A stretch of 64,000 nt of DNA from Candidatus Heimdallarchaeota archaeon (GTDB lineage: Archaea > Asgardarchaeota > Heimdallarchaeia > Hodarchaeales > Hodarchaeaceae): positions 320,001 through 384,000 of the forward strand of contig RDOB01000002.1 in assembly GCA_011364965.1 (NCBI GenBank). The letters run 5' to 3'. Positions 1,570-52,776 of the stretch are shown here, in pieces; positions within the stretch are counted from its first letter, which is position 1; every line of letters starts with the position of its first letter. Below the pieces are notes generated by a model, which saw nothing but the letters and a program-made list of their open reading frames with translations, was not told the origin of the DNA and did no database searches. The position numbers were made by a program, and so were the translations under genes.

Positions 1570-2736
1570 TTATTGAATCCTAGATAGAACAATCTCCATG
1601 ATATCAATAGATCGTATTGAAGACCTAAGACGATTAAGGTGTTCATCTATATTTATTTGACATGCCGGGCAAGCATTTAAACAATAATCAACATTCTGAT
1701 CTTCAAGTTGCTGGATCAAAGCTTCAGCTACATCTTCTGCAATTTCAGGGTAATTGGCTTTTACTAATCCACCAGCACCGCAACATAAGGCATTCTCTCT
1801 GTTATTTTCCATTTCACAATTTTTAATCCCAGGAAGAAGATTAATTAGTTCTCTAGCATGTTCATATTCCCCACAGTGTCTTCCCAATTCACATGGATCT
1901 TTAAAAGAAACTTTTATGGATTTATTATTGGTAAATTTAAATTTATTTTTTTTAATAAGTGAAATAATATAATCCATATGCGTGATGACCTTAAAAGGGA
2001 GACTCTTCCCTATAATTTTGGGATATTCTTTTGTGAAGACCCTAAAGCATCCAGCACATGAAATTATAAGAGTTTTAATTCCCAATCTTTCAATCTCATG
2101 AATATTATGCTTTGCCAATTCTAAAGCTTTATTTGGTTGTCCACCTAAGAGATAAGGGTTTCCACAGCAATATTCTGATGGTGAAAAGACAGATATCTTT
2201 TCATTTGCCTTCTCAACTAGTTTTAAAAGGGAAACTGGAGCCCCTGAAGCCCTTGCAGAATAGGATGAAACACACCCGATGAAATATCCAACTTGAGCTT
2301 TTCTATTTACAAATTTATTATATAAAGATTCAACTTCTGAGGCCCAAAAACTCCGATCTTCTTGGTCTAATCCATAGAAATTGTTGTTAACCTTTAGATT
2401 ACTAAACATTCTTTTTGTATGAAAAGGAATATAATCTTGAACCATAGTTTTTAATTCAGAATATACCTCAGTTAAGGGGATGTCAAGCATGCATTCCTGT
2501 TCACATGCTGCGCAAAAAGTGCATTGAAATAAACCTTTTGAGAGAGCTTGTAACCCCTCTTCCTTTTTTAGCCTTCCATCTGCAAGATTTCGGGATGTAA
2601 TCATTTTTCCTCTCCCTGTTACTATCTCATGCTTTACAGAAAGATATGTAGGGCAAGCAGCATTATTATTTACGCAATACGCGCAATAAGCACAGATATA
2701 GAGCTCGTTGAAATATTTCAAAGCCTTTAAGTTCAA
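1570..2736 (-). CDS. Fe-S oxidoreductase, HdrD/GlpC-like (4Fe-4S dicluster plus two CCG domains)
   Basis: CAYCAYC..CP, CTFCAACEQEC, EYCCG, SCAGC, DPCELGR, LCCGAGG, ACPAC. Confidence 0.9.
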   Translation of the reverse strand: MNLKALKYFNELYICAYCAYCVNNNAACPTYLSVKHEIVTGRGKMITSRNLADGRLKKEEGLQALSKGLFQCTFCAACEQECMLDIPLTEVYSELKTMVQDYIPFHTKRMFSNLKVNNNFYGLDQEDRSFWASEVESLYNKFVNRKAQVGYFIGCVSSYSARASGAPVSLLKLVEKANEKISVFSPSEYCCGNPYLLGGQPNKALELAKHNIHEIERLGIKTLIISCAGCFRVFTKEYPKIIGKSLPFKVITHMDYIISLIKKNKFKFTNNKSIKVSFKDPCELGRHCGEYEHARELINLLPGIKNCEMENNRENALCCGAGGLVKANYPEIAEDVAEALIQQLEDQNVDYCLNACPACQINIDEHLNRLRSSIRSIDIMEIVLSRIQ

Positions 2737-2805
2737 AATTACGATCCCCGAGATAAGTTGACTTGATTTAAGTTTCTGACCTCTTTTTAGCTTTTCTTAA
2801 TTAAT

Positions 2806-3693
2806 CTAAAAAGGAACATATCCATGTGCCATTAAGAATTCCTGTTCTTCGGGTGTTAAACTTTCTCCAGTGTCACGTTTTTTAAGAAGAAGTTTTATTT
2901 TGTCGTCAATTTCACTGAATGCTTCCTTTTTTGTTTCCTCGGAGAGTAATTTCTTTAAATTAATAATTTTTCCTTTTAATGCGTCTAATTCTTCCTGCTT
3001 AGCCTCAATATTGACTTTAAGCTCCTCGACTTTTTGTAAATGAGAAACAAAATCTTGGTGGGCCTTATCTTCTTCTTCCTTCAGAGGTTTAATGCGATCA
3101 TACATCTTTTGTACTTTAATAGATAATAATTTTCGATCTGCTTCCTCTTGTGAAATTTGCTTTTCAATTTCCGAGATTTCTTGCTCAATTTTTTCCTTGG
3201 ATTCTGGAATATCACCCAGATAATCAGCTACAATCGCTTCATTTTTTTTCTCTAAAAGTGAAATCCTCTCTTCAATACGTCTTATCTCATCCACTAATAC
3301 TTCCTCATCGTCCCGGGATAGACTGCTCGTTTGTTGCTTAAATTCAAGTTCATATAACTGATATTTTAGTTCGACAATAGTTAGCTTTTCGAGTTCATCT
3401 GAGGACAGGATTTTGAAAACAGGTCCTTCAGTTCGTTTAGCTTCCCTCCGTAGGAAATCACGACGCTTTTTCAACATTTCCAAAGTATTTCGAGAATGAT
3501 CTTGAGACTGCATCTCCGGCGCGGTTTTTTCCAACAATCCCTGCCTTTCCAATTTTTTCCTGTCTCGCAATTTTCTGAAATGTGTCGTTAATTTTTGTTG
3601 TTCCCTTAAACTATCTCTCATAATTTTAATTTCAGCAATTAATGTCGATTGTTGTTCGTAATGAAGTTTTAATTGATCCTTGGTAGATTTCAC
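2806..3693 (-). CDS. Archaeal coiled-coil protein (COG1340-like)
   Basis: Heptad-rich E/K/Q sequence, central 'LEFKQQTSSLSRDDEEVLVDEIRRIE' and C-terminal 'KRDTGESLTPEEQEFL'. Confidence 0.6.
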   Translation of the reverse strand: MKSTKDQLKLHYEQQSTLIAEIKIMRDSLREQQKLTTHFRKLRDRKKLERQGLLEKTAPEMQSQDHSRNTLEMLKKRRDFLRREAKRTEGPVFKILSSDELEKLTIVELKYQLYELEFKQQTSSLSRDDEEVLVDEIRRIEERISLLEKKNEAIVADYLGDIPESKEKIEQEISEIEKQISQEEADRKLLSIKVQKMYDRIKPLKEEEDKAHQDFVSHLQKVEELKVNIEAKQEELDALKGKIINLKKLLSEETKKEAFSEIDDKIKLLLKKRDTGESLTPEEQEFLMAHGYVPF

Positions 3694-5006: not shown

Positions 5007-6458
5007 GTGGAAATCGCTGTACAAGAAATTAGAGTATTTTGTTTATGCGAGAATAAACAAGCTATTCAAAATTTTCTGAAATCTGCATTATCAAAGACCG
5101 ATGTCATAAGATTTATCATTGATTTCACTTATTCAGGAATAAAATCGACTGCTATATATTCAGGATTCACTCTGAAGTCATACCAAATATCAAGGAAACT
5201 AACAAAGGATTGGATCCCCACCACCTTTCTTTCTGGAATTAGAACCCTTTTAGAGGAATTTCCTCTTTCAGGATTACGGTCCAGCTTTTATTTAAATTTT
5301 TCCAAGGTAAAAATTCCAATAGATCTCGTTGAATGTTTGGAAAACCAATTGAAAGATTTTGTTTCTGAATATGAGACTTCTGCTTCTTATTATTCAATAT
5401 TTCTGGAGAGAGGATATGAAAGAAAGATACTAAATCAACTCTCTCTTAGATATCCCTTTATCTGCTTTGAAAACGGGCATGTACTACCAAATTTTTTCTA
5501 TAATACTGAAAAACTAAATAAATTCCCGAATAAATTAAAAGAGCTATATCTTCCAATAGAGTTACTTTTAGATGAATTAGATAGGAATAAATTGGAGAGA
5601 GATCAGCTAAAAAAAGAATTATTCCTTCAATCAACTCAAAATAACATACTGGAAGCAACTCTGTCAACTTTTTTAGCAATGGAAAAAGAACAGCGTGAAA
5701 AGGGAATAGAAAGCACCCCTGCAGACATGATTTCTCTTCTAGATTACAAAGAACTCCGAAAACGCTTTGATGAAAAGTCACAAATACTTTCATCTGTAAC
5801 TCACGATTTAAAATCCCCTCTTTCTGCTATTCAGGGTTTTGCTGAGCTTATGAAAGAAGGGATGGCTGGAGATATATCTGAGGATATGAAAAAGCATCTT
5901 GAGGTTATAATTAGAAATGCAAAACGCTTGAGTATTATGGTTGATTCTATTCTTGAATTTGAAAGTTATGATAGATCTGAATATGTTCTATCCAGAGAAG
6001 TTGTTAATTTAGTTGAGTTATTGAATGACGCAAAAATGTCTGTGCTCCCCCGAATGCTCCAAAAAAATCAAAAAGTTAATATTTATACTCCTGATACCTT
6101 GGAGATTGTAGCTAATCGTGAATTACTTTTAAGAGTGATACAAAATTTATTAGATAACGGAATTAAATATTCCCCAAGAGATACGGGGTTAATTGAAGTC
6201 TTTGCAGAAGAGAAGGTGAAAAATAAACAACCCTATGTTAAAATAACAATAAAAGATAATGGTTTTGGCTTTAAACCCGAAGAAGTGAAAAAAGCCTTTA
6301 TTCCTTTCACTCGGTTTGAAGCAGGTATTAGTTCTACTGGACTTGGTCTTTCTATTTCTAAGAAGATAATTGAGGATCTTCATTATGGAACAATTGAAAT
6401 TAGCTCTCCTGGAAAACAAAAAGGAACAACTTTGGTGATTACGTTACCCAAATCGTAA
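5007..6458 (+). CDS. Cytoplasmic sensor histidine kinase with a probable degenerate N-terminal MEDS domain
   Basis: H box THDLKSPL, N box NLLDNGIKY, G1 DNGFG, G2 TGLGL. The N-terminal domain ends 'LRYPFICFENGHVLPNFFY', like MEDS. Confidence 0.9.
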   Translation: MEIAVQEIRVFCLCENKQAIQNFLKSALSKTDVIRFIIDFTYSGIKSTAIYSGFTLKSYQISRKLTKDWIPTTFLSGIRTLLEEFPLSGLRSSFYLNFSKVKIPIDLVECLENQLKDFVSEYETSASYYSIFLERGYERKILNQLSLRYPFICFENGHVLPNFFYNTEKLNKFPNKLKELYLPIELLLDELDRNKLERDQLKKELFLQSTQNNILEATLSTFLAMEKEQREKGIESTPADMISLLDYKELRKRFDEKSQILSSVTHDLKSPLSAIQGFAELMKEGMAGDISEDMKKHLEVIIRNAKRLSIMVDSILEFESYDRSEYVLSREVVNLVELLNDAKMSVLPRMLQKNQKVNIYTPDTLEIVANRELLLRVIQNLLDNGIKYSPRDTGLIEVFAEEKVKNKQPYVKITIKDNGFGFKPEEVKKAFIPFTRFEAGISSTGLGLSISKKIIEDLHYGTIEISSPGKQKGTTLVITLPKS

Positions 6459-6596
6459 TAAAATTACATAATTTCTAGAATATAATTTAAATTGATATCA
6501 TTCCTCATCTATTTGATTACTCAAATCTTAAAAATATCAATAACTTGTCCTAAACATAGGCATATCCTTTATGATTGAAGTAAGGACTGAAAACCC

Positions 6597-6926
6597 TTGG
6601 ACGTAAATCCTTTAAAATTACTTGAAAAGGAATATACTCTGCTTATACTACAGTATCTTCATTTGAATCCAAATGGAAGAACATTCGAACAAATTTGTTC
6701 ATCAATTGATCACCGCGCTGTTCCTAGTATGGTTAATTCAAGATTGAATACTCTAAGGGAACTTGGTTTAGTGATCCGTATAAAGAGTGAGAAAGAGTTT
6801 GAATATTTGTTTGCCCTTTCAAATCGTGGAAGGTATGCGAGTGAAATTGTTTGGGATTTATTTCGAATCATCCTCAATCCACGAGACTCGGATGAGGATC
6901 CCGATATGATAGATTTCTATAAATAA
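6597..6926 (+). CDS. Winged-helix (HxlR-like) transcriptional regulator
   Basis: 'PSMVNSRLNTLRELGLVIR...YLFALSNRGR'. Confidence 0.8.
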   Translation: MDVNPLKLLEKEYTLLILQYLHLNPNGRTFEQICSSIDHRAVPSMVNSRLNTLRELGLVIRIKSEKEFEYLFALSNRGRYASEIVWDLFRIILNPRDSDEDPDMIDFYK

Positions 6927-7162
6927 TGGGAGACAGAGTAAGTTACGTCAAGTAGTAGGATCTATTTTGACGAAAAGGGATATTTAACCCTATGTTCATA
7001 TTATAAGAGGATTCTAATAATCCCTTTTTTCTTCTTGATCAATTTTTTATAAGCGCAAATTTCCAGCTTATTTGCTTGAAAAGCTAAATAATTGAAACTT
7101 AATTAATAAATTGGACAGACTTTCTTTACTATTTTCGCGATATTGAAACAAGTGGATTCCTT

Positions 7163-8188
7163 ATGTCTTTTTCTGATCAAAAAATGCAAAATTTATTGAA
7201 AAAACAGAAATATCAACTATATGGAAAAAACACCTCAGTAAAGAAATGTAGATGGACCCATAATGCCTTAAGAGAAAACAGGTACTGCTATAAAAGATTT
7301 TATGGAATTCGTTCTCATCAATGTATTCAATTCTCCCCAACACTTATCTGTAATTTCTCATGTCAATTTTGCTGGCGTATTCATGAACGTGACATTGATT
7401 TACCTGATATGTATGATTCCTATAGAAACCGTGATAAAGATAAATTGGAATTAATGTTTGATAGACCAAAAGAGGTCATAAAAGGTATTTTATTGGGACA
7501 AAAGAGAATAATCTGTGGCTATAAACCATTTGTAGATTTGGAAAAGTATAATGAAGCAATGAATCCCAAGCATGCAACTTTATCACTAACAGGAGAACCT
7601 TTTCTCTATCCCTGGATTCCTGAATTAATAAATGAGCTAAAAGCATTAGGAATGACCGTATTTATAGTCACTAATGGAAGTGTTCCTGAAACCCTTCTTG
7701 AAATACTAGAAAAAACTAGCTTTCCAACACAATTATATGTAACACTTCCTGCACCTGGCGAGAAGCTTTTTCTTCGAACTCACCGTCCTGCTGAGAAATT
7801 AAGTGCAATGCGAAAAATTTGGAGCACTCTAGAAATAATCGGAGCTGGGGTACCCTTTCGAACCGTTGGGCGTCTTACAGTGGCTGAAGGTCTGAATTTA
7901 GTGGATCCTGAAGGGTATGCTAAAATGATCAGCGTAATGAAACCATCTTTCATTGAAGTGAAAGGTGTTGTTCATGTAGGAGCAGCTGAGAAACGTTTAC
8001 CAAGATCTGTGATGCCCTCACATAAAAAAATTGTTTCTTTTTCGCTAGAATTAGAAAAATTAACAGGTTATAAATTGGTAAAACAGTCTCAGGTCAGCAG
8101 ACTAGTTATTCTCACTAACAATTCATATCCCCTTCTTATTCCAGAATTGCAATCGAATGCAGATTTACTACCTAATGAAGACGATTGA
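7163..8188 (+). CDS. taw1: 4-demethylwyosine synthase Taw1/TYW1 (radical SAM)
   Basis: VKKCRWT, CYKRFYGIRSHQCIQ, CNFSCQFCWR, SLTGEP, FIEVKG. Confidence 0.95.
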   Translation: MSFSDQKMQNLLKKQKYQLYGKNTSVKKCRWTHNALRENRYCYKRFYGIRSHQCIQFSPTLICNFSCQFCWRIHERDIDLPDMYDSYRNRDKDKLELMFDRPKEVIKGILLGQKRIICGYKPFVDLEKYNEAMNPKHATLSLTGEPFLYPWIPELINELKALGMTVFIVTNGSVPETLLEILEKTSFPTQLYVTLPAPGEKLFLRTHRPAEKLSAMRKIWSTLEIIGAGVPFRTVGRLTVAEGLNLVDPEGYAKMISVMKPSFIEVKGVVHVGAAEKRLPRSVMPSHKKIVSFSLELEKLTGYKLVKQSQVSRLVILTNNSYPLLIPELQSNADLLPNEDD

Positions 8189-46976: not shown

Positions 46977-48650
46977 TTACTGGATTTGTTCCAGGTTTCC
47001 TTTACAATAAGGACATGTTGTAACCCCTGTTTCTTTGATATTGGCATAACAGTCACTGCATATCTTTCGAGAGCACTGATCGCATTTATATGCAGAATCT
47101 GTTGATGGATGAGTTTCTCCATCAAGTTGACAATGGAAGGATTCACGTTCATCAGGGAAATATTTGTGGGTTTTGATAGGTTGTTCAACCTTTGCTCCGC
47201 AATACTTACAGAATCGACTGTTTGGTAGAAGATCTCGACCACAACTACGACAATTTGTCTCGTTTGCTGGAGTAGTTATTTTCGAAACGCCATAATCTCT
47301 ACCAACAAGTTTCGCACCGCAGTTTGTACAATATGTATCTCCTATTTTCGTCTTGAAATTGCATCTATGGCACTGCCCTTCCTTTAATGTCGGGATTCCG
47401 GCACTCGGAGGAACCTCTGTTGTTGGAGGAGTGCTTGGAGGCGTTGTGGTTGCATCTGGAACTACTGCTGGAGCTTTCTTTGCTTTACTTCTTTGAATAA
47501 GGGCAATTATCAAGATAAGAACTATAATACCACCTATTACTAAAAGAACTGGTTGAAAATCAAGCCATCGTTGTTCATAAGTTATATTGGTTTGATATGT
47601 GACATCAAAAGTGATGTCCACCGACTCTGCGGGGTTTATGAAGGGATCGAAATAGATAAAGAAATACCAATCACCATCAGAAGGAACAGTATAACTATCA
47701 GGAGCAATGTAATCTACAGCTTCATAAAGCACAGGAGCAGCAGAAAAGTCATACACTCCGACTGCATTATAATTTACAGTAAAATCGACATTGATTGGAC
47801 TAGTTCCAGCGTTATACCACACTAAATACCAATCTTGTGCATATGGTATAGTATATGAACCATTATCTCCTGAACTACCAAAATAAGAAACATCAGGATA
47901 TATTGTTTCCCAATTATTCCATCGACTAAGTTCATTTGCATCTGTTATGAAGAATTCGATGTCTCCTCCAGAAACAGTGAAATCATATGCCAAAATGGAT
48001 CCAGGTTTGAGGAAATACCCAATATACTGGTAATCATGATTCGCTTGAACAACCATATTTTCACTGTAACTACCTGTAAGAGTACGTGTTGCAGGAAACG
48101 TTTCAAAAGGTTGATTCCAGATAATAAATGTCACTTCACTGAATGCATCTAATGTGTAATCAATTTGCTGACCAGCAGATAATTGTTCTCGTTCATACCA
48201 ATATTCATTGTAATAGAGAGTTTGAGTATCGCGATAGGTCACCGTACCATCTGCAGAGGCGTTTGTGAATGGGAAAGGGATGAATGCCATACCTAGTAGT
48301 GGAAGTATAATGAGTAATGCAATAATTCCAAGTACAATACCACTACTCCAGTAAACTGGAGCATAATACCAAGGACGATAAGGGTAACCCCACCACCAAT
48401 ACCAACCCCACGGTCTACGCCACCATGGGCGCCAGAATCCCCAGTGTCTTCTTCCATAAGGATGGTAATGCCCGCGTGAAATACCACTACTCCGAGGTGC
48501 TCTTGATACTGTCCGTCTTGATCCTGTTCTTCCAAAGGGTCTCCCAGAGGATCTTATACTTCCAGTACGAAAGCTGTGGCTACCACCTCTAAAGCCGCCC
48601 CCTCTAAAGCCGCCCCCACCCCTGAAACCACCACCACCGCCACGAGGCAT
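46977..48650 (-). CDS. Two-pass membrane protein: RGG tail, W/Y-rich segment, GOLD-like ectodomains, double zinc ribbons, C-terminal RING-like finger
   Basis: (GGFRG)n N-terminus, two TM helices, CxxC pairs and C-terminal CQLD..CDQC..CSDC..CPYC. Confidence 0.85.
   Translation of the reverse strand: MPRGGGGGFRGGGGFRGGGFRGGSHSFRTGSIRSSGRPFGRTGSRRTVSRAPRSSGISRGHYHPYGRRHWGFWRPWWRRPWGWYWWWGYPYRPWYYAPVYWSSGIVLGIIALLIILPLLGMAFIPFPFTNASADGTVTYRDTQTLYYNEYWYEREQLSAGQQIDYTLDAFSEVTFIIWNQPFETFPATRTLTGSYSENMVVQANHDYQYIGYFLKPGSILAYDFTVSGGDIEFFITDANELSRWNNWETIYPDVSYFGSSGDNGSYTIPYAQDWYLVWYNAGTSPINVDFTVNYNAVGVYDFSAAPVLYEAVDYIAPDSYTVPSDGDWYFFIYFDPFINPAESVDITFDVTYQTNITYEQRWLDFQPVLLVIGGIIVLILIIALIQRSKAKKAPAVVPDATTTPPSTPPTTEVPPSAGIPTLKEGQCHRCNFKTKIGDTYCTNCGAKLVGRDYGVSKITTPANETNCRSCGRDLLPNSRFCKYCGAKVEQPIKTHKYFPDERESFHCQLDGETHPSTDSAYKCDQCSRKICSDCYANIKETGVTTCPYCKGNLEQIQ
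48585..48640 (-). repeat. Short coding tandem repeats (GGFRG units)
   Basis: cctctaaagccgccc occurs twice, plus a degenerate copy. Confidence 0.7.
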
Positions 48651-48655
48651 TTGTT

Positions 48656-49630
48656 TTATTCCTCCTTAGCAGCAGTGCTTGTTGCTTCACGGAATATTAT
48701 GTCTCTTGCTACTGCTGCTACTAAAAATATTATAGCTAATCCACTAAATGTGACTCCTAAGATATCAATTTGAGCTGAGGATGCACGGATCGCACCAAAT
48801 AGAAGTATTAATACAAATAAAAGCCATTCGATGAGTAGATTGCCAATTCCAACTAATAATCCAATTTGATGCCAATTTCGATTAAGTTTAATTTTGTGAT
48901 AATCAGCAGATGCCCATTGATAAATCGCAAACGCACTGAAAATGCTTAATAATAAAAACACAATCCCATATACAGCTAACAATAGCCAGAATAAACCAAA
49001 GTCACCTTGGAGAGTTAAATAGCTGTAGATCGATCCACCTCCTCGCGCTTCGAAAAGATAGTACGTTACAAGGTCTGGTCCTGAAGCGGGTACAATAGGT
49101 GCTTTCAGAAAACCAGCTAATCCAATTGCAGGCGCTAAACCTCCAAAAAACAAAAATAGGACTGTTGCTAGTAATGTAAACGCATAATTAAACTGGCGAG
49201 GATTGGATACTGGAATTAATCCTTTCAAATCTTCGTATTTTTCAGGTAAATAGCCCCAACAATCCGTTATGGTGGCTACACCCAATAATTCCTGATTTTC
49301 AACAACAGGAATTACAGAAACATCTAAATCGCGCATACGTGTGAAAGCAACTGCAACAGGGGTATTATTTGTAACTGGATCAATGGTATACATGACTTCA
49401 GTCACTTTTGCATTTTCTGCAGATAAACCTTCAGCAACTAGATTTGTGACTATATCAAAGTCAGCAATTACCCCAACGACGTTATTCCCTTTATCAACAA
49501 CAACCAGATCTGGAATCCCCGCTTCTTTCATTTTCATGGCCGCATCTTTTACAGATGCTTCACTTGAGATCACATCATATTCATCATCGATCGTTAGATC
49601 CGCAATTTTAAATTCCTTATCATTAGACAA
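48656..49630 (-). CDS. CBS-pair protein with a C-terminal four-TM domain
   Basis: Two CBS motifs (LVVVDKGNNVVGVI, IPVVENQELLGVAT) and four hydrophobic helices. Confidence 0.88.
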   Translation of the reverse strand: MSNDKEFKIADLTIDDEYDVISSEASVKDAAMKMKEAGIPDLVVVDKGNNVVGVIADFDIVTNLVAEGLSAENAKVTEVMYTIDPVTNNTPVAVAFTRMRDLDVSVIPVVENQELLGVATITDCWGYLPEKYEDLKGLIPVSNPRQFNYAFTLLATVLFLFFGGLAPAIGLAGFLKAPIVPASGPDLVTYYLFEARGGGSIYSYLTLQGDFGLFWLLLAVYGIVFLLLSIFSAFAIYQWASADYHKIKLNRNWHQIGLLVGIGNLLIEWLLFVLILLFGAIRASSAQIDILGVTFSGLAIIFLVAAVARDIIFREATSTAAKEE

Positions 49631-51738: not shown

Positions 51739-52776
51739 TTGAATGATGACCCTTTACGGATTAACGAAATTATTAAGTATGCTGACGAAAAAGTTGCCAC
51801 TCTTGAACGAGATAACGGCAAAATAAGGTCTTGGAGGTCTTGGAGAAAATGGATGGTTAATCAACAAAATAGGTTCTCTCAAGGTAAAATCTCTCACTAT
51901 CAGTATTATTCACTTGCAGCAGCGTTCGCCCAATATCTTCATAGCGATTTAGCTATCTCTATTAACCCTATCGAGGAAATTCTTTCCTCCAATTATTGTT
52001 CGACTTGTTTAGACCCTATTGATGAAGATGAAGTCCGACTCAAGGTATGCAGTAATTGCAGAAGCCGTCTTTCTTTATTAGAACGTGAGCGGGTTGTTTT
52101 ACCTTCCCAAATGGGCTTTATTTTCTCTCTCTCCCTTTTTTGGTTGATTTTTTTGAATCCTAAAAAAGCATTTAATTATTTGCGATATGGATTAGCAAAT
52201 TGGATTCACGTTTTATCCCTGTTTATTGTTTCCAGTGTTCTTCTTAGCGTAACGGTATTGGAATTTGTACCTCGAATGAGCTACACTACTCAAGAGGAAA
52301 TTGAGGTATGGATGAGCGTTCAAAATACTATTGCTTGGGAAGGCGTAATAGCTTATTTTATTCTAAATATCGTTATCTTTTCGCTTTATACTTTGGTAAT
52401 TTATTTTTCTACCCGAGGTTCATCATTCTCTTATTCGCTTTCTGAAACATTGAAAATATCTAGTCTTATAATCTTACCTCGTGTTCTTCTTATGCCTCTT
52501 TATGCATTTTTCTATCAACAAACAACAAATGAAACCTATCTAATTTCTAGATATGTTTCGTTAGAGCAAGTGCAATGGCTTATCCTCAATTTAAATGATT
52601 ATATGGGAGAATATGGGGTCTTTATTGAAACTTTAGCAGGTATTCTGACCCTAATGTTGTTCTTTTTCGCGTTGTATTACACTTGGAACCTTGAGACTGA
52701 TTCATCGTTATTTCGTCTTATTCCAATGGCATGGATGTTCATTATTCTTGCCTTTGGAGTCCCTCTATATCTTTAA
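51739..52776 (+). CDS. Yip1-like membrane protein with an N-terminal helical region and zinc ribbon
   Basis: CSTC...CSNC, then 'LIFLNPKKAFNYL...W' and about five TM helices in the Yip1 pattern. Confidence 0.65.
   Translation: MNDDPLRINEIIKYADEKVATLERDNGKIRSWRSWRKWMVNQQNRFSQGKISHYQYYSLAAAFAQYLHSDLAISINPIEEILSSNYCSTCLDPIDEDEVRLKVCSNCRSRLSLLERERVVLPSQMGFIFSLSLFWLIFLNPKKAFNYLRYGLANWIHVLSLFIVSSVLLSVTVLEFVPRMSYTTQEEIEVWMSVQNTIAWEGVIAYFILNIVIFSLYTLVIYFSTRGSSFSYSLSETLKISSLIILPRVLLMPLYAFFYQQTTNETYLISRYVSLEQVQWLILNLNDYMGEYGVFIETLAGILTLMLFFFALYYTWNLETDSSLFRLIPMAWMFIILAFGVPLYL

Follow-up and report, generated by a model that had tools for sequence, protein, structure and literature searches.

Membrane-bound RING ligases are central to quality control and sorting in the eukaryotic endomembrane system. 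One family with members in Arabidopsis carries the name ABERRANT POLLEN DEVELOPMENT 1-4 (APD1-4). APD1-4 are described as RING E3s that span membranes of the endomembrane system, and even in plants their substrates are unknown (PMC13210498, citing Luo et al. 2012). Plant APDs are about 445 amino acids (aa) long and contain PF16040, PF16041 and PF13920; in one of them (P0261) two transmembrane helices, at 73-91 and 313-331, enclose the luminal part, and the RING is found at the C-terminus. The archaeal ubiquitin operons encode small soluble RING E3s (PMC5654768). Here we describe a gene on a 64,000-nucleotide (nt) stretch of DNA from a Candidatus Heimdallarchaeota archaeon (assembly GCA_011364965.1, contig RDOB01000002.1, positions 320,001 to 384,000 of the forward strand), which as a whole is called the window. 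The gene, at 46977-48650 on the minus strand, is the Heimdall-group (Hodarchaeales-like) version of an Asgard family of two-pass membrane proteins, and this family is the archaeal counterpart of eukaryotic APD1-4. A first-pass annotation, made from the sequence, had put the protein forward as a candidate membrane E3 ligase and as a strong candidate for an undescribed system; the system is not wholly undescribed, since its eukaryotic counterpart is a known family.

An Asgard membrane protein family related to APD1-4

Based on profile searches, the relation to APD1-4 was traced through the extracellular domain (ectodomain) that lies between the two transmembrane helices. PF16040 (APD1-4_N) was matched by 77 of the 105 family ectodomains, with a best value of 5.2e-7 and APD1-4_M as the next family; the window protein alone scored 16.1 bits (E 0.0089) against APD1-4_N, under the cut-off of 27. 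When the 105-sequence alignment (A1) was searched exhaustively with HMMER against 1.84 billion representatives, 248 proteins were hit. They include proteins from the amoebozoans Pellita catalonica (8.3e-10), Cochliopodium minus (1.9e-8), Balamuthia and Planopodium and an APD of Brassica (2.7e-5), and these bear PF16040 and PF16041 above the gathering scores. Comparison of the same alignment with 17 eukaryotic luminal domains (A3) by hhalign gave a probability of 98.5% and an E of 2.7e-15 over 169 columns. Similarly, the nearest foreign ESM Atlas cluster of the ectodomain was a plant cluster with APD1-4_M/N (TM 0.54 over 168 aa). On these sequence comparisons we consider it nearly certain that the ectodomain is homologous to the luminal domain of the eukaryotic APDs.

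In a quick maximum-likelihood tree of 13 eukaryotic and 38 archaeal ectodomain rows, the remaining homologues being left out, the eukaryotes came together with support 99, and their long branch fell outside every archaeal group. The tree allows no inference of a sister relation specific to Hodarchaeales or of a recent transfer. Judged from the sequences, the origin of the ectodomain is old, and none of the Asgard groups can be singled out as sister to the eukaryotes. A search of open papers, a scope outside which subscription journals lie, turned up none that joins APD, DUF4792 or PF16040 domains with archaea or Asgard.

The protein is read from its N-terminus as an RGG tail, a W/Y/R/P-rich segment, a first transmembrane helix, an acidic all-beta ectodomain, a second transmembrane helix, a P/T linker, a double zinc ribbon and a terminal finger, and every element that the first-pass annotation had listed was found in the open reading frame in the order that it gave. 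The features are as follows, all on the minus strand of the window.

46977-48650, minus: whole gene, open reading frame of 557 aa (P0001), APD-like membrane protein with two transmembrane helices
48471-48650, minus: residues 1-60, cytoplasmic G/R/S tail, RGG-box-like, with three FRGG repeats
48339-48470, minus: residues 61-104, W/Y/R/P-rich juxtamembrane segment, kept family-wide
48282-48338, minus: residues 105-123, first transmembrane helix (hydropathy)
47553-48281, minus: residues 124-366, extracellular all-beta domain, in all probability homologous to the APD1-4_N/APD1-4_M luminal domain
47754-48080, minus: residues about 191-299, GOLD-like beta-sandwich core inside the ectodomain (VIA-align, Foldseek)
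47496-47552, minus: residues 367-385, second transmembrane helix (hydropathy)
47376-47495, minus: residues 386-425, basic stop-transfer stretch, then a cytoplasmic linker rich in P and T
47190-47375, minus: residues 426-487, double zinc ribbon with a conserved GRDYG..TTPA spacer (Pfam DZR)
46980-47165, minus: residues 496-557, RING-like cross-brace finger at the C-terminus
48656-49630, minus: upstream partner gene, 324 aa, a CBS pair and four transmembrane helices (CBS-4TM)

The transmembrane helices were located with a hydropathy scan and by charge bias. Residues 1-102 contain 19 R and 11 W and not a single D or E, the ectodomain (residues 128-366) has a net charge of -27 and no Cys, and all 15 Cys of the protein sit C-terminal of residue 426. 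By the positive-inside rule, the N-tail and the C-tail both lie in the cytoplasm and the domain between the helices lies on the outside, which agrees with the receptor-like N-in/C-in topology claimed at first pass. Plant APDs have the same layout, namely a cytoplasmic N-tail, a transmembrane helix, a part in the lumen or exterior, a second transmembrane helix, a linker and a C-terminal zinc finger. Two of the features by which an APD is recognised were thus found, the luminal domain (at the level of the family) and the two flanking helices with cytoplasmic tails. The third, a C-terminal C3HC4 RING (PF13920/PF13639), is absent from the window protein: the RING of the plant APDs is of the C3HC4 type (PF13920), whereas the window finger is of a different, C4C4-like type.

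The amoebozoan APD-like members have, like the window protein, a Gly-rich N-tail; theirs starts MPRHGGG or MGKHSGG, and their Pro/Tyr-rich C-tails, some with PPxY motifs, are without a RING. PPxY motifs recruit NEDD4-type HECT ligases in eukaryotes. A set of RING-less eukaryotic APD_N/M proteins, from amoebozoans or eukaryote-like (P0167, P0183, P0189, P0255, P0213 and P0228), was seen to have a Gly/His/Arg-rich N-tail starting MPR/MGR/MPV..GGG and, in several of them, PPxY in the C-tail.

A word-indexed search found 112 homologues of the window protein, and every named one is from an Asgard archaeon, so that the open reading frame of 557 aa did not arise by chance. Copies at about 60% identity, from metagenome-assembled genomes with Heimdall or Hodarchaeales names, are full length, and those with Loki, Thor or Hermod names, which have about 40% identity and a length of about 490 aa, end directly after the double zinc ribbon. 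When near-full-length matches were counted in a 201-genome sample of the phylum, the ectodomain was found in all nine genomes of the window's genus and in two other families (28/40 and 2/3), with zero matches in the 35 searched genomes from other families of the same class. Among the genomes searched, a profile of the finger matched the window's genus only (9/9, and the window's own genome) and gave no match in the 40 genomes from the main family without the finger. An NCBIfam search with the protein gave no useful match. The window stretch was listed for DNA runs only, from marine-sediment, mangrove, estuary and soil metagenomes, and for no RNA run.

An AlphaFold2 model of the ectodomain, made from the 105-sequence alignment, is all-beta with a predicted local distance difference test (pLDDT) value of 93. 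About residues 64-172 of the model superpose on GOLD domains in VIA-align and Foldseek: in VIA-align the p24beta1 GOLD gave Z 12.7 and a root-mean-square deviation (rmsd) of 1.6 for 88 of 93 residues, and further GOLD matches were p24gamma2 (Z 12.1), TMED1 (Z 11.9) and SPF/Sec14L (Z 11.6). The N- and C-terminal strands build an outer sheet around this GOLD-like core, so that the modelled ectodomain consists of a single GOLD-like sandwich enclosed by a second beta domain. Of the GOLD ectodomains named at first pass, the GOLD-like fold of the core stood, but there is a single core and not several. On sequence the family falls outside EMP24_GP25L (PF01105), which was matched by only 3 of the 105 members (best E 0.0065), and an ESM Atlas feature search with the ectodomain returned weak archaeal EMP24-like leads only (0.82). 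Foldseek also matched birnavirus VP2 in long alignments with an rmsd of about 15 Å, which were set aside as a shared nested-sandwich topology and not homology.

The same ectodomain was also found inserted between WD40/PQQ-like beta-propeller repeats in proteins of 540-660 aa (P0111-P0113) with a signal or anchor and a C-terminal transmembrane helix, and because of these insertions it is a portable extracellular module. Separately, P0229 (MFQ5980359.1, Heimdallarchaeota) and P0220 consist of an RG-rich tail, a transmembrane helix, a short GOLD-only ectodomain, a second helix, a zinc ribbon and a canonical RING-H2-like finger, the last with a zf-RING_2 E of about 2-4e-5, slightly under the cut-off. 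This second archaeal family is an independent joining of such an ectodomain type to a RING.

The CBS-4TM gene ends 5 nt ahead of the start codon of the window gene, with a Shine-Dalgarno sequence (AAGGAGG) inside its last codons. Of the 37 genomes in which the ectodomain was matched at near full length, 36 have the CBS-4TM gene, by its coordinates, as immediate upstream neighbour in the same orientation, and in the remaining one the contig breaks; the pairing also occurs on Heimdall-, Loki- and Hermod-named contigs (L018, L020, L022). A functional pairing of the two proteins is very probable. An ESM Atlas feature search with the CBS partner returned its own cluster only. Elsewhere in the window, 51739-52776 on the plus strand encodes a 345-aa multi-pass membrane protein with a cytoplasmic CxxC..CxxC ribbon (CSTC..CSNC) and no Pfam match.

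The N-tail, MPRGGGGFRGG..SSGRPFGRTG and then a RPWYYRWWYSPWW-like stretch, is kept in all of the Asgard homologues. Its three FRGG repeats are clustered in residues 1-23, as in an RGG box, and kept family-wide, and together with the aromatic residues the tail would mediate a further interaction, with RNA, with acidic lipid or with itself. In the C-terminal cytoplasmic tail, the two ribbons each have the pattern CxxC-x10-CxxC (Cys427/430/441/444 and Cys467/470/481/484). Pfam DZR (PF12773, cut-off 27.3) was matched with 33.6 bits (4.3e-8) by the whole protein, with 38.7 bits (1.1e-9) by the isolated tail, and by all 35 finger-bearing family members. A reading of the ribbons as NZF (RanBP2-type) fingers was rejected by eye, as they agree with such fingers in spacing but not in the signature Asn and Trp.

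The terminal finger and the ubiquitin-like machinery

The finger has the sequence pattern C507-x2-D510-x12-C523-x2-C526-x4-C531-x2-C534-x11-C546-x2-C549 and is encoded at nt 46980-47132, where the first-pass annotation had placed it. All 35 finger carriers agree at the seven Cys, at D510, H514, L509, P547, Y548, K550 and G551 and at the last residue, Gln, and with the seven Cys and D510 and H514 the RING spacing of eight ligand positions is present.

A model of the finger (pLDDT 81-86) has short strands, a helix from the third Cys pair and a final hairpin. The top Foldseek matches were the RINGs of RNF4, c-Cbl, RING1B, Bre1 and TRAF3, and the ribosomal protein aS34, at E 0.01-0.1, probability 0.95-0.99 and 52-63 columns at 2.5-3.2 Å. 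Nearly all VIA-align matches among the representatives were cross-brace domains of the RING, ZZ or U-box type with Z 4-6.3, including aS34 (Z 6.3, 55 aa), the Nbr1 ZZ (5.4), the Slx1 and listerin RINGs (both 5.2) and the RNF213 RING (5.1). The finger thus models as a two-zinc cross-brace of the RING/ZZ/U-box type with a predicted zinc geometry. The RING-like cross-brace proposed at first pass is upheld by these matches, and the finger does not model as zinc ribbons outside the cross-brace type. With Pfam, zf-RING_4 was touched by 35/35 finger carriers and zf-UDP by 29/35 (15 bits vs 27.1), and zf-RING_2 gave weak matches only. The canonical contact positions between RING and E2, as in the c-Cbl, CNOT4 and RNF4 complexes, we take to be L509, residue 538, P547 and K550 in the finger, and the residues there are conserved (L509, I/M/L/V538, P547 and K550). 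A complex prediction from a finger alignment (A4), the genome's best E2 (A6) and two Zn scored 0.00 vs a mark of 0.32 and, as it was run without controls, speaks neither for nor against an interaction.

The finger is multi-copy in the window's genus, with 3-12 hits per genome. In a sample of 20 paralogues and the window genome's own copies, the residue three after the first Cys was Cys in 9, Asp in 12 and His in 3. A His at +7 was present in all 12 Asp copies and in all three Cys copies without the sixth ligand (CVDA, CVDS and CVEA), and was missing in all six copies with four site-1 Cys and in the three CxxH copies. A single His near pair 1 therefore offsets the loss of ligand 2 or of ligand 6, which means that pairs 1 and 3 share one zinc, as they do in a cross-brace; this covariation among the paralogues supports the cross-brace zinc pairing. 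It also makes His514 the likelier ligand and Asp510 perhaps a helper or an alternative. The assignment of Asp as second ligand, made at first pass, is accordingly the less likely one, as the paralogues favour His514 as the replacement. On the whole the genus looks to have a set of sensor proteins joined through a transmembrane helix to the finger as cytoplasmic end module.

Ubiquitin-like machinery is encoded in the genome: there are four UQ_con matches (one UEV-like), ubiquitin-like genes, five ThiF/E1 matches and canonical RING matches, with three ubiquitin/E1/E2 clusters on contigs C16, C1 and C13. The ubiquitin, E1 and E2 genes that a ligase reading of the first-pass annotation had called for are thus present as profile matches. 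On C13, just after a cluster of JAB, E2, a ubiquitin-like protein ending in GG and E1, lies the gene of a 582-aa protein with two fingers (C13:35000-47000, open reading frame 6081-7829, plus strand). The winged-helix repeats of this paralogue match the UFL1 model PF09743 (24 bits, cut-off 23.2) and also PCI. Within the genus, 19 of 21 genomes have its orthologue immediately downstream of this E1 and in the same orientation. The finger family is tied to ubiquitin-like conjugation, via this paralogue rather than via the window gene, and on sequence the 582-aa protein is a candidate E3 of the C13 system.

Some further observations were made on these genes. The C13-type E1 orthologues in four genomes (G136, G206, G201 and G207) each have a single in-frame stop (TAG, TAA, TAA and TGA, respectively), which may be read-through of the upstream boundary in the six-frame match or real breaks. 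A UEV-like E2 variant of 262 aa, which has a coiled-coil tail, is flanked by a small-GTPase-like gene and the gene of a 206-aa helical protein (C16:82085-85345), about 5-10 kb from the E2/RING/ubiquitin/E1 cluster of C16, in what looks like an ESCRT-I-like neighbourhood. The finger carriers include CBM96-TM-finger, LVIVD-propeller-TM-finger and YCF48/BNR-propeller-TM-finger proteins (TM, transmembrane helix), a cytosolic propeller-finger and a finger-LRR protein, with loci L045-L050, in genomes G102, G062 and G133 of the window's genus, and L024 (open reading frame 1814-3124); PCI/winged-helix proteins with two fingers are carriers as well.

A possible membrane ligase, scaffold or tether

From sequence, models and analogy taken together it is plausible, and we would lean neither for nor against it, that the finger is an E2-recruiting module and the protein a membrane-anchored RING-type E3. 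As such, the ectodomain would bind an extracellular or surface ligand, and the CBS-4TM partner would form a membrane complex with the APD-like protein and report the adenine-nucleotide status. The finger would recruit E2~Ub from one of the three ubiquitin-like systems of the genome, and the APD-like protein would ubiquitylate itself, its partner or nearby membrane proteins. An E3 function is supported by the fold of the finger, by the conserved E2-contact positions, by the operon link of the paralogue and by the RING E3 relatives of the same layout.

Several results weigh against it. An E3 function is weakened by sub-threshold scores: the finger passed no Pfam RING cut-off (zf-RING_4 was best, with 22.8 bits vs 27), PDB sequence and profile searches with the protein and the finger gave nothing significant (best aS34, E 0.013), and fold matches of Z 5-6 are modest for a short domain. 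It is further weakened by the odd first zinc site, which is non-canonical (Cys, Asp or His, Cys, Cys), and by the non-ligase uses of the cross-brace fold, found also in ZZ domains, in the N-terminal finger of CesA and in aS34. Most of the family, including Loki-, Thor- and Hermod-type members and the amoebozoan homologues, is without any RING, and the core function of the family does therefore not need one. Near the window gene on contig C9 there are no ubiquitin, E1 or E2 genes. The UFL1-like match of the 582-aa paralogue is barely above its cut-off and may reflect winged-helix repeats only. Finally, hhalign between the window finger and the plant APD RINGs gave 6.6% and no specific relation, and with that value a common origin of the two cannot be claimed.

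The protein could instead be a non-catalytic scaffold or receptor that works with the CBS-4TM partner, with the finger as a protein-protein module for oligomerisation or for binding of peptide tails and not for E2 recruitment. Oligomerisation has been proposed for the RING-like N-terminal finger of CesA, and ZZ domains bind peptide tails. Such a role would suit the finger-less members, which keep everything else, and a finger that stays under all RING cut-offs, that scores equally well with ZZ domains (Nbr1 at Z 5.4, p300, HERC2 and PRT1) and the CesA finger as with E3 RINGs, and that is fused like a generic adaptor to many unrelated proteins. Against a scaffold speak the conservation at the E2-contact positions and the double-finger paralogue that follows the E1 of a ubiquitin-like cluster in 19/21 genomes, and also the eukaryotic homologues of the same layout, which are RING E3s (PMC13210498). 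We hold this explanation to be possible but doubtful.

The FRGG repeats of the N-tail, together with aS34 as the best PDB match of the finger both by profile and by fold, bring up a membrane tether for RNA or ribosomes, in which the RGG tail binds RNA, the aS34-like finger binds the small subunit, and translation or ribosome quality control takes place at the membrane. However, the sequence match to aS34 is not significant, and RGG-like G-rich tails are present also in the finger-less eukaryotic APD-like proteins. Moreover, aS34 is a 30S protein restricted to Thermoprotei, and its authors compared it, a protein with two zinc ions, to the domains of RING E3s (PMC11698992), so that aS34 has itself been described as RING-E3-like. 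A tether is quite improbable.

A p24/TMED-like cargo receptor, whose GOLD-like ectodomain binds cargo and whose tails bind coat or ESCRT with no role in ubiquitylation, would agree with the strong GOLD fold match (Z 11.9-12.7) and with the ESCRT and small-GTPase genes near the UEV-like protein, but is highly improbable in view of the few members that match Pfam EMP24 (3/105), of a specific homology to APD and not to p24, and of the single-pass p24 with short tails as against a two-pass protein with large zinc-binding tails.

For the protein as a membrane-anchored RING-type E3, a wider proposal is that the APD-type membrane ubiquitin ligase arose in Asgard archaea, and that the window protein is an active membrane RING E3 which couples an outside signal and, via CBS-4TM, the energy state to ubiquitylation of membrane proteins that feeds ESCRT. 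We regard this as unlikely in its full form. If true, it would amount to a prokaryotic pathway of ubiquitin-dependent sorting of membrane proteins, and the ectodomain-TM-finger family would be a set of receptor-type E3s.

Comparison with known systems

Among known zinc fingers, the C4C4 RINGs (CNOT4/Not4, zf-RING_4; CesA, zf-UDP) share with the window finger the eight ligand positions, near-equal spacing, the cross-brace and the CP.C[KR] and C..CY motifs. The window finger differs from them in lying under the curated cut-offs, in the Asp at ligand 2 and in an extra invariant His. The parallel to Not4/CNOT4 drawn at first pass holds for the spacing and for the best Pfam match, but that match is sub-threshold and the second pair is CxxC, as in CesA, and not CxC as in Not4. 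For the CesA finger, no E3 role is known to us.

The GOLD domains of p24/TMED proteins (5azw, 5gu5 and 7rrm) resemble the window core in their beta-sandwich, with Z 11.9-12.7 and rmsd 1.6-2.3, whereas the window core is nested in an outer sheet and topology, tails and sequence family differ. In the PA-TM-RING proteins RNF13 and GRAIL, as in the window protein, a binding domain on the outside is joined across the membrane to a cytoplasmic RING, and the RING of RNF13 matched the finger fold with Z 4.5, but the PA domain is not homologous to the window ectodomain. The archaeal ubiquitin systems reconstituted until now have, to our knowledge, small soluble RINGs. The RINGs of the archaeal operons are soluble, of the RING-H2 type and encoded inside the ubiquitin cluster, whereas the window gene lies elsewhere in the genome of an organism that has E1/E2/ubiquitin machinery. 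The protein aS34 (9fhl_a, from the Saccharolobus solfataricus 30S) is, like the finger, archaeal and RING-like, with two zincs and seven Cys, but unlike the window protein it is a free ribosomal protein of 72 aa restricted to Thermoprotei (PMC11698992).

The closest archaeal relatives of eukaryotes thereby gain a candidate membrane E3 whose partner is conserved and whose zinc finger is open to testing, and within one Heimdall-group genus this finger appears connected with many extracellular sensor domains as well as with a ubiquitin-like operon. As a predicted ligase, the protein may represent an archaeal precursor of membrane E3 ligases. Compared with the APDs, the window protein has a double zinc ribbon, an FRGG/aromatic tail and a CBS-4TM operon partner in addition, and it resides in an archaeal cell membrane; through it, the APDs, an orphan family of eukaryotic membrane E3s, would gain an archaeal origin.

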